Sequence record: NC_054910.1
Origin: Escherichia phage EcNP1
Strand: one strand, 5' to 3'
DNA: 64,000 nucleotides
In this document: in pieces, positions 55,697 through 56,763 of the stretch
How the letters are laid out: the number at the start of each line of letters is the position of its first letter
How positions within the stretch are numbered: the first letter of the stretch is position 1
The notes under the pieces: model-generated
The model's input: only the letters and a program-made list of their open reading frames with translations
Database searches by the model: none
What the model was told of the DNA's origin: nothing
Translations under genes and position numbers: made by a program

Positions 55697-56557
55697 TTAC
55701 ACCGCCATTTTTCCTTTAATAGGAGGGTGTGATTCGTAACCTTTAAGAACGAAATCTTTAGGCCTGAGTTTAAGAACATATTCCAATTGTTCTTTAGTAG
55801 AAAGATAGCGGAATTTATAAGGCAATCCGCCTATTACCAGTTCACAAAGCTCTTTAGGTTCACGACGCAAAATTTCTTTACATTGTTCTACGTGATTCAT
55901 ATAAATATGAGTATTACCGCCAGAAAATATCAAATCTCCTGGAATAAGATTACACATCTTAGCTACAATATGAACTAATGCAGCATATGATGCAATATTA
56001 AATGGAAGACCGAGGAAAACATCTACCGAACGTTGATACCACTGCAAATCCAAATAGCCATTACGCACATTAAACTGATAGAACATATGACAAGGCGGTA
56101 ATGCCATATATTTAAGTTCAGCTGGATTCCATGCAGAAACAATTTGACGCCTATCATTTGGTAGTTTTTTAATACGATCAACAACTTCTATAATTTGGTC
56201 TACACCGCCAAAATCACGCCATTGTTTTCCATAAATTGGACCAAGTTCACCACTATGATATCCTAAATCTTTTGCTTGATTTTCGTAATTTTCATCCCAG
56301 ACTGTTTTGCCTTGAATTAATGAATCATGTTGAATTAATCGCAAATCATTGACATTTATGCTTCCCGATAAAAACCAAAGGAGCTCAGCAATGCAAGCTT
56401 TCCAGGCGAGCTTCTTAGTTGTTACTGCAGGAAAACCTTTACTTAAATCCCAGCGCAATTTAGTACCAAACAAAGCAATTGTTCCTGTGCCTGTTCGGTC
56501 ATCGGTTTCGTAACCATTTTCCAGGATATCTTTAATTAAAAATTGGTATTGTTTCAT
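55697..56557 (-). CDS. td: Thymidylate synthase, uninterrupted
   Basis: 286 aa from ATG at 56557 (MKQYQ...); active-site ALPPCH; single continuous ORF; track start 56569 is TTG. Confidence 0.95.
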   Translation of the reverse strand: MKQYQFLIKDILENGYETDDRTGTGTIALFGTKLRWDLSKGFPAVTTKKLAWKACIAELLWFLSGSINVNDLRLIQHDSLIQGKTVWDENYENQAKDLGYHSGELGPIYGKQWRDFGGVDQIIEVVDRIKKLPNDRRQIVSAWNPAELKYMALPPCHMFYQFNVRNGYLDLQWYQRSVDVFLGLPFNIASYAALVHIVAKMCNLIPGDLIFSGGNTHIYMNHVEQCKEILRREPKELCELVIGGLPYKFRYLSTKEQLEYVLKLRPKDFVLKGYESHPPIKGKMAV

Positions 56558-56763
56558 TAGTTCATCCAAGAATATGTAGAAGGATATTTGGCAAAGTTAG
56601 GCTTATATCCTAATTTAACCATTTGTTTTGCTTTGCGAGTAAATCCTAAAGAACGCTCACCTTTAAGATATTGTTTTGGTGTCATAGGCCCTTGATGCAT
56701 CTGCCGGCAAATAAAAAGAGCCATAGCATTAGGAACATCCTTAACTTTTAATTTATTGCTCAT
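56557..56763 (-). CDS. Small basic hypothetical protein between frd and td
   Basis: 68-aa ORF with a true ATG that overlaps the frd stop (ATGA); its stop overlaps the td start (TAATG). Confidence 0.6.

Follow-up and report, generated by a model that had tools for sequence, protein, structure and literature searches.

The junction between the genes for dihydrofolate reductase (frd) and thymidylate synthase (td) was analysed in a stretch of 64,000 nucleotides from Escherichia phage EcNP1 (NC_054910.1), which as a whole is referred to as the window and supplies all positions given without a segment or accession. An open reading frame (ORF) for a basic protein of 68 amino acids (MSNKLKV...YSWMN), called gene Y below, occupies positions 56557..56763 on the minus strand, as identified from the ORF list, the sequence itself, a match to the family phrog_9550 and the annotation QXV73490.1. 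The preliminary description of this DNA had reported the ORF at the same place with no strand given, and the translation quoted there was reproduced exactly. Y is flanked upstream by frd (193 aa, 56760..57341, minus strand, 93.5% nucleotide identity to T4 frd) and downstream by an intron-less td (286 aa, 55697..56557, minus strand). When a 501-nt query spanning the junction was searched, it matched the Tequatrovirus vB_EcoM_Nami, an Escherichia phage (MZ502380; called Nami below), with 100% identity.

Y is joined to both neighbours by overlapping codons. The Y start codon (ATG, 56763..56761) overlaps the frd stop codon (TGA, 56762..56760) in the tetramer ATGA (56760..56763, minus strand), which is identical to the one that T4 uses for the frd stop and the td start, and the last A of the Y stop codon (TAA, 56559..56557) is the first base of the td ATG (56557..56555), giving TAATG at positions 56555..56559 on the minus strand. 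Read on the coding strand, the gene ends run ...GTATATAAATGAGCAATAAA...TGGATGAACTAATGAAACAATACC.... An ORF of 81 aa (57341..57586, minus strand) forms the upstream end of the series, its stop codon overlapping the frd ATG, again as TAATG. Because the overlaps succeed one another (TAATG, ATGA and TAATG in turn), the four cistrons, in the order 81-aa ORF, frd, Y and td, make up one overlap chain; both overlaps described earlier for Y, and its place within the chain, are thus borne out by the sequence. The overlap of the Y stop with the td start is also TAATG in the phages Marfa and 4S, and is GTGA in CIP9. A strong Shine–Dalgarno sequence ahead of Y is absent on reading of the sequence. At the composition of the window (35.8% G+C), the chance of 67 sense codons in a row is about 0.0075.

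Signals that might divide the chain were sought between frd and td, and no promoter-like or terminator-like site above the shuffle background was found there; the sole terminator-like site follows gene 32. A search with Rfam returned no RNA family in positions 55500..58000, and the folding of the mRNA was unremarkable at both Y overlap junctions (z values of 0.13 and 0.30). The arrangement is that expected of a coupled polycistron, with ATGA shared with frd, TAATG shared with td and no signals between the genes. Translational coupling of Y may be deduced from the overlap geometry only, RNA structure giving no support.

Several features of the surrounding interval were recorded alongside. Between frd.1 and frd lie the 81-aa ORF and an ORF of 111 aa (57595..57930, minus strand) that carries the label DUF2861 in the record, in a place where T4 has only a 72-nt gap. 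At 55130..55456 (minus strand) an ORF of 108 aa is 96% identical to T4 NrdA.1 and absent from the GenBank annotation of Nami; its overlaps with the nrdA.2-like ORF and with the start of nrdA are exactly those seen in T4. Indels of small ORFs are frequent all along the interval between gene 32 and nrdA, which constitutes a hotspot for them. In td of Nami, the matches to T4 exon 1 and exon 2 abut at 56009/56008, as expected for an intron-less gene. The sister phage Shinka has td annotated as two coding sequences separated by a gap of about 314 nt in which there is no I-TevI ORF (1844–3024 of the segment, with Y at 1638–1844). Taken together, the intron-less td of Nami and the split td of Shinka mean that Y co-occurs with intron-less and with intron-containing td.

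Y is already a known gene. It matches the HMM of phrog_9550 with E=1.3e-45 and 154.5 bits, residues 1–68 aligning to positions 1–68 of the 68-position profile, and so belongs to this family of PHROGs v4, which is assigned to the category of unknown function and includes QXV73490.1 (Nami), YP_009850431.1 (Klebsiella phage Marfa) and YP_007348396.1 (phAPEC8). The record MZ502380 carries Y as the coding sequence QXV73490.1 (“hypothetical protein”) with exactly matching coordinates, and the gene is annotated in more than 100 relatives. The novelty implied by the preliminary description does not hold, since the Nami record, like those of more than 100 common relatives, has the same ORF annotated at this junction, an outcome which that description had itself named as counting against its claim. 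The same annotation in the Nami genome and in so many relatives marks Y as an ordinary swappable accessory gene. A search of the protein against protein and structure databases, which had been proposed as a check, led to the catalogued family and to no structural relatives. The literature search returned nothing on the Y ORF, phrog_9550, phrog_1928 or RB32ORF229c.

The distribution of Y was determined by tblastn against a phage collection, in which 236 records carry it. Identity to Y is at least 90% in 133 of these (Tequatrovirus and Dhakavirus) and 60–90% in 31, which are mostly Klebsiella phages together with Enterobacter phage CIP9 and Serratia phage 4S; the remaining group, with less than 60% identity, comprises 72 records, and every row sampled from it was phAPEC8-like. 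Carriers are accordingly found among about a quarter of Tequatrovirus, in Dhakavirus, Marfavirus, Kanagawavirus and Serratia phage 4S, and in the unrelated phAPEC8-like phages, and all named hosts are Enterobacteriaceae except for one record labelled Campylobacter. In Dhakavirus, Y was present, as one uninterrupted match, in each of the roughly 20 records listed. A profile search of 1.84 billion representative proteins returned 11 clusters at E up to 1e-3, of which ten were judged genuine, all of them small (70–96 aa) basic proteins, and no informative domain fusion was found among the 11; a word-indexed homolog search returned only 19 close clusters. Excluded was a repeat-rich, probably eukaryotic protein of 1402 aa (P0025), the six matches of which to Y profile positions 9–29 (NVPSALGLHVCHQG) were judged to be chance low-complexity or repeat similarity. 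A six-frame HMM search found no Y paralog in the window. Around the distant homologs lie blocks of small ORFs near genes for RNA ligase, PIF1 helicase and DnaB. Neither td nor frd was found within about 4 kb of these homologs (phAPEC8-like and metagenomic sequences). A conserved neighbour, or a module of Y with the ORF X described below, was considered for these distant phages and rejected; the neighbours are not shared.

The annotation of Y differs among records. In the original records of JS98 (EF469154 / NC_010105, 2501–2707 of the segment) and JS10 (EU863409), Y is unannotated, a “gap” of 202 nt separating frd from td; in later Dhakavirus records the gene is annotated. The Shinka ortholog (QXV73235.1) is labelled “protein of unknown function DUF4858”, and the Nami protein, from the same submitters, is a “hypothetical protein”. 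Membership of Y in DUF4858 was rejected, the protein giving zero Pfam matches at E up to 1.

The junction was compared with that of T4 (NC_000866), in which frd lies at 145109–145690 and td ends at 145112, so that the two genes overlap directly in ATGA (145109–145112), as had been stated beforehand. Nami and T4 differ by an exact indel of 204 nt, the flanks aligning base for base on both sides; ATGA and its upstream context thus serve Y in Nami and td in T4, which lacks the 204 nt. Whether the T4 arrangement is typical was assessed in a survey with the 300-nt T4 junction as the query, in which about every ninth ranked record was taken (n=57 full-length matches) and junction classes were assigned from the match spans, the long class being checked in T6, Bas35, REP1 and Mosigvirus KMB38. 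A span of about 680–720 nt, corresponding to an insert called X here, was found at 38 of the 57 Tequatrovirus-type junctions (about two thirds), a span of about 500–507 nt, corresponding to Y, at 14 (about a quarter) and the direct span of 300 nt at five (about a tenth; T4 and its close kin, HY03 and F1). The slot in Tequatrovirus therefore holds X only, Y only or, as in T4, neither, and the direct overlap of T4 is a reduced, minority allele of a polymorphic slot. The preliminary description had set the ORF against the T4 overlap, which these counts show not to be the norm, the direct junction occurring in only about five of the 57 sampled Tequatrovirus-type records; the comparison across T-even genomes that it had proposed agrees with it in that the ORF is absent from T4 and departs from it in that the ORF is common among relatives.

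Other T-even-type genera show further arrangements: the order is frd–X–Y–td in Marfavirus and Serratia phage 4S, frd–X–X'–Y–td (with a tandem X pair) in Kanagawavirus CIP9 and frd–Y–td in Dhakavirus JS98. In every T-even-type genus examined (at least six, including Tequatrovirus, Dhakavirus, Marfavirus, Kanagawavirus and Serratia 4S), Y lies directly upstream of td and overlaps it; the ORFs found between frd and Y differ among these genera.

The ORF X (RB32ORF229c / phrog_1928, 115 aa, of unknown function in PHROGs) is the commonest occupant of the frd–td slot in Tequatrovirus. It was found at the junction in T6, RB3, PST, wV7, Bas35, Mosigvirus KMB38 and REP1, at segment positions 773–1120 in T6, Bas35 and KMB38 and 772–1119 in REP1. 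Between frd and Y, X homologs are represented by CIP9 gp061 (about 43–44% identity) and, more weakly, by CIP9 gp060, Marfa gp176 and a 126-aa ORF of 4S. X shares with Y the same slot and the presence of short direct repeats around the insert; unlike Y, with which it has no sequence relationship, X of the T6 type is not coupled by overlaps, since in the T6-type alleles examined it follows frd after a 20-nt gap and is separated from td by a spacer of 13–45 nt. The inserts are bracketed by AATGA (Y in Nami) and by the 9-nt TAAATGAAA (X in T6). Loss of the DNA between the two copies of either repeat would recreate the T4 junction exactly, which is compatible with insertion and with deletion alike.

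The T6-type allele was found to have features of its own. The TAAATGAAA repeat around X looks like the footprint of an insertion into, or the substrate of a deletion to, a T4-type junction. At positions 749–760 of the T6 segment, the frd stop still lies within ATGAAATAA, which forms a mini-ORF of two codons with the same start as td (ATGAAA). The 45-nt spacer between X and td in T6 (1121–1164 of the segment) contains TTAGCTTCA, followed after 10 nt by TATAAT, and so resembles a MotA-box middle promoter with a –10 element; td may accordingly be transcribed from a separate promoter in the X-type allele. The corresponding spacer is much shorter in REP1 and KMB38 and has no MotA-box-like element. 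The Bas35 record labels X a “putative homing endonuclease”, a label that Pfam does not reproduce; no Pfam domain was found in X.

Conservation of Y was examined across Nami, Marfa, CIP9 and 4S. Nonsynonymous differences (pN 0.13–0.30) are well below synonymous ones (pS 0.55–0.84), with dN/dS of about 0.14–0.28 where computable. Amino acid identity across the four genera is 52–81% for Y, 38–66% for Frd and 75–82% for Td; Y is better conserved across genera than Frd and comes near Td. The Y family has diverged between genera about as far as Td has, and so is old within the T-even subfamily. Length is constant at about 68–70 aa. The N-terminal motif NKxKV..P, the residues R20, K34, G40 and M48, the motif LGY.P and the C-terminal motif YPSxYxW[MF][ND] persist in the phAPEC8-like and metagenomic homologs that have no downstream td, and K4, K6, R20 and K34 vary little or not at all within the family. 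As the motifs are kept where td does not follow, the constraint acts on the protein and not on the td initiation region. Y is thus a genuine protein-coding gene under purifying selection. It is at the same time a dispensable accessory gene, being absent from T4 and present at only 14 of the 57 sampled Tequatrovirus-type junctions.

Comparison with Dhakavirus JS98 revealed that Y lies in an island of near identity that comprises the gene and the first 44 nt of td (252 nt, 56514..56765, minus strand). Within the island, Nami and JS98 differ at 4 of the 252 positions (98.4% identity), and outside it their identity is 76% in frd and 74% in the remaining part of td. Against T4, frd and td of Nami are 91–94% identical, and the backbone is about 93% T4-like. 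The left edge of the island is sharp, the last mismatch, at 56766, preceding the Y ATG by three bases, and the right edge falls about 45 nt into td: over nucleotides 1–40 of td, Nami is 97% identical to JS98 and 85% identical to T4. Near this edge, Nami shares the td codons F6 and L12 with JS98; codons 5–6 encode Q-D in T4, T6 and the outgroups. An island of 252 nt in diverged flanks indicates that Y moves as a recombination cassette. We infer that some Tequatrovirus phages acquired a Dhakavirus-type Y allele through homologous recombination in co-infected cells, the direction being assigned by parsimony, and ordinary homologous recombination is enough to explain the spread of Y. Describing Y as “inserted” is reasonable for Tequatrovirus, because a JS98-like patch (98.4% identity) sits in a T4-like backbone (about 93%); within the T-even subfamily as a whole, the family itself is old.

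Td alleles of E. coli T-even phages also fall into classes: 205 records have at least 95% identity to Nami Td and 465 have 80–90% (tblastn). Such deep allele classes suggest that td itself is mosaic outside the Y island as well.

The Y protein has a mass of 7.9 kDa, a pI of 10.26, 13 K+R residues versus 2 D+E, a net charge of +11 and a GRAVY value of –0.68, in agreement with the basic character noted previously, and all family members are similar in this respect (pI 9.75–10.56, net charge +7 to +16). Structure prediction by AlphaFold2 from an alignment of 22 sequences gave a model with pLDDT 82.5 and pTM 0.57; a shallower alignment gave pLDDT 56 and was unusable. In the model, a less ordered basic arm (residues 1–10) precedes helices at 13–24, 29–38 and 43–50, and the aromatic C-terminal tail packs back. 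The predicted structure is thus a compact domain of three helices, preceded by a flexible basic arm at the N terminus. When Y and its 22 homologs were searched against Pfam and NCBIfam, nothing credible was returned, and nothing at all from Pfam at E up to 1; the HMMs of PADLOC-DB, a library of defence systems and not of anti-defence proteins, matched none of the 23 members, and a sequence-profile search of the PDB with Y found no match at E up to 10.

A resemblance to homeodomain-like or helix–turn–helix domains was considered on account of the basic N-terminal arm, the three short helices, the high pI and an invariant glycine in the turn before the Lys/Arg-rich third helix. The top matches of the model in a Foldseek search of the PDB are indeed homeodomains; judged by significant superposition or a match to a helix–turn–helix profile, neither of which was obtained, assignment of Y to this class was rejected, and the model has no detectable structural relatives. 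A confidently modelled domain of 68 residues that lacks a structural relative is mildly noteworthy. Membership among homing endonucleases was rejected as well, in keeping with the earlier remark that Y is too small for such an enzyme: the protein has 68 aa and no nuclease domain by Pfam, with no match at E up to 1 among the 23 members. The comparison with T4 segG (by gene 32) and mobE (by nrdA) is nevertheless apt in that these, too, are optional ORFs between conserved genes of this region, with short flanking tracts exchanged between phages; the difference is that Y, at 68 aa (the mobE coding sequence of T4 corresponds to about 141 aa), contains no GIY-YIG, HNH or NUMOD domain and gives no sign of nuclease-driven mobility.

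With moderate confidence, Y is interpreted as a dispensable accessory gene for a basic protein that binds nucleic acid or an acidic partner and that is exchanged as a cassette in the polymorphic frd–td slot. On this interpretation, Y would be transcribed together with the pre-replicative nucleotide-metabolism genes, before replication, and would most likely be translated by termination–reinitiation along the chain from the 81-aa ORF through frd and Y to td. The product would then bind nucleic acid, or an acidic partner of host or phage origin, early in the infection of Enterobacteriaceae, and may act as a host-takeover or counter-defence factor. Exchange between co-infecting phages would proceed by one crossover at the frd stop and another about 45 nt into td, in a slot that is filled as frd–X–Y–td in the outgroups and by X only, Y only or neither in Tequatrovirus. 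Y is probably not obligatory for thymidylate synthesis, and it probably acts as a stand-alone protein, because the distant homologs share no neighbour and lack td and frd within about 4 kb, and because most Tequatrovirus phages make Td without Y.

The strongest rival to this interpretation, which we regard as unlikely, would have Y serve thymidylate synthase, or the dNTP-synthetase complex of the T4 type, as a dedicated partner or modulator, with the ratio of Y to Td fixed because the genes are translationally coupled. Such a role would account for the constant, overlapping adjacency of Y to td across T-even genera in which the content between frd and Y varies, and for the transfer of N-terminal td codons along with Y in the exchanged cassette. 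It is hard to reconcile, however, with the production of Td without Y in T4, T6 and about three quarters of Tequatrovirus, and with distant homologs that have neither td nor frd within about 4 kb; moreover, the co-transferred part of td amounts to 44 nt and is more simply taken as the crossover site. Patchy distribution and horizontal spread would be explained by fluctuating selection if Y were a counter-defence or host-range factor directed against an immune system of Enterobacteriaceae, a sub-case of the preferred binder reading that is doubtful though quite conceivable. The polymorphic presence of Y within one genus, its recent transfer between genera, its small size and location within early-type gene blocks, and its occurrence in two unrelated phage groups, the named hosts of which are Enterobacteriaceae apart from the one Campylobacter-labelled record, all fit this proposal. 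Fixation in Dhakavirus and the use of one locus across genera are less typical of arms-race genes, though, and dN/dS gives no indication of diversifying selection; in the searches performed here, Y also had no similarity to any characterised protein. Decidedly unlikely is that Y represents an unrecognised fold which modulates Td or the dNTP-synthetase complex, or else a new class of small basic counter-defence proteins shuttled between genera. Were the Td-modulator reading true, Y would have been kept glued to the td start codon for stoichiometric co-translation.

Two explanations that deny the peptide a function for the phage or a function as a protein are contradicted by the pattern of conservation. 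Y might be a degenerate remnant, or the DNA-binding module, of a free-standing homing endonuclease, or a selfish cassette of no benefit to the phage; its position between conserved genes recalls that of the seg and mob genes, a short td flank is co-converted, and the alternative occupant X bears the label “putative homing endonuclease” in one record. This is very improbable, given that neither Y nor X contains a nuclease or NUMOD-type domain, that the label of X was not reproduced by Pfam and that Y keeps a constant length of about 68–70 aa under purifying selection and is conserved in unrelated phages. Extremely improbable is the view of Y as a translated spacer or leader that tunes td translation, the peptide itself being irrelevant. 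Overlapping codons at both ends, the lack of a strong Shine–Dalgarno sequence before Y and the conservation of the C-terminal codons TGGATG shortly before the td ATG could be taken in its favour, but the N- and C-terminal motifs are conserved where td does not follow, dN/dS stays far below 1 along the entire gene, and a fold is predicted with confidence.

As a gene that is already annotated and catalogued, Y matters little for discovery, and its interest is mainly contextual. Its compact, confidently modelled domain with no structural relatives, its fixation in the Dhakavirus records listed and its constant position next to td make it a sensible and inexpensive choice among the accessory genes of T-even phages for further study. 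The 252-nt island provides a clean, base-resolved case of cassette exchange between T-even genera, and the textbook overlap of frd and td in T4 proves to be the reduced, minority state of a slot in which one or the other of two small, mutually unrelated genes is usually present.
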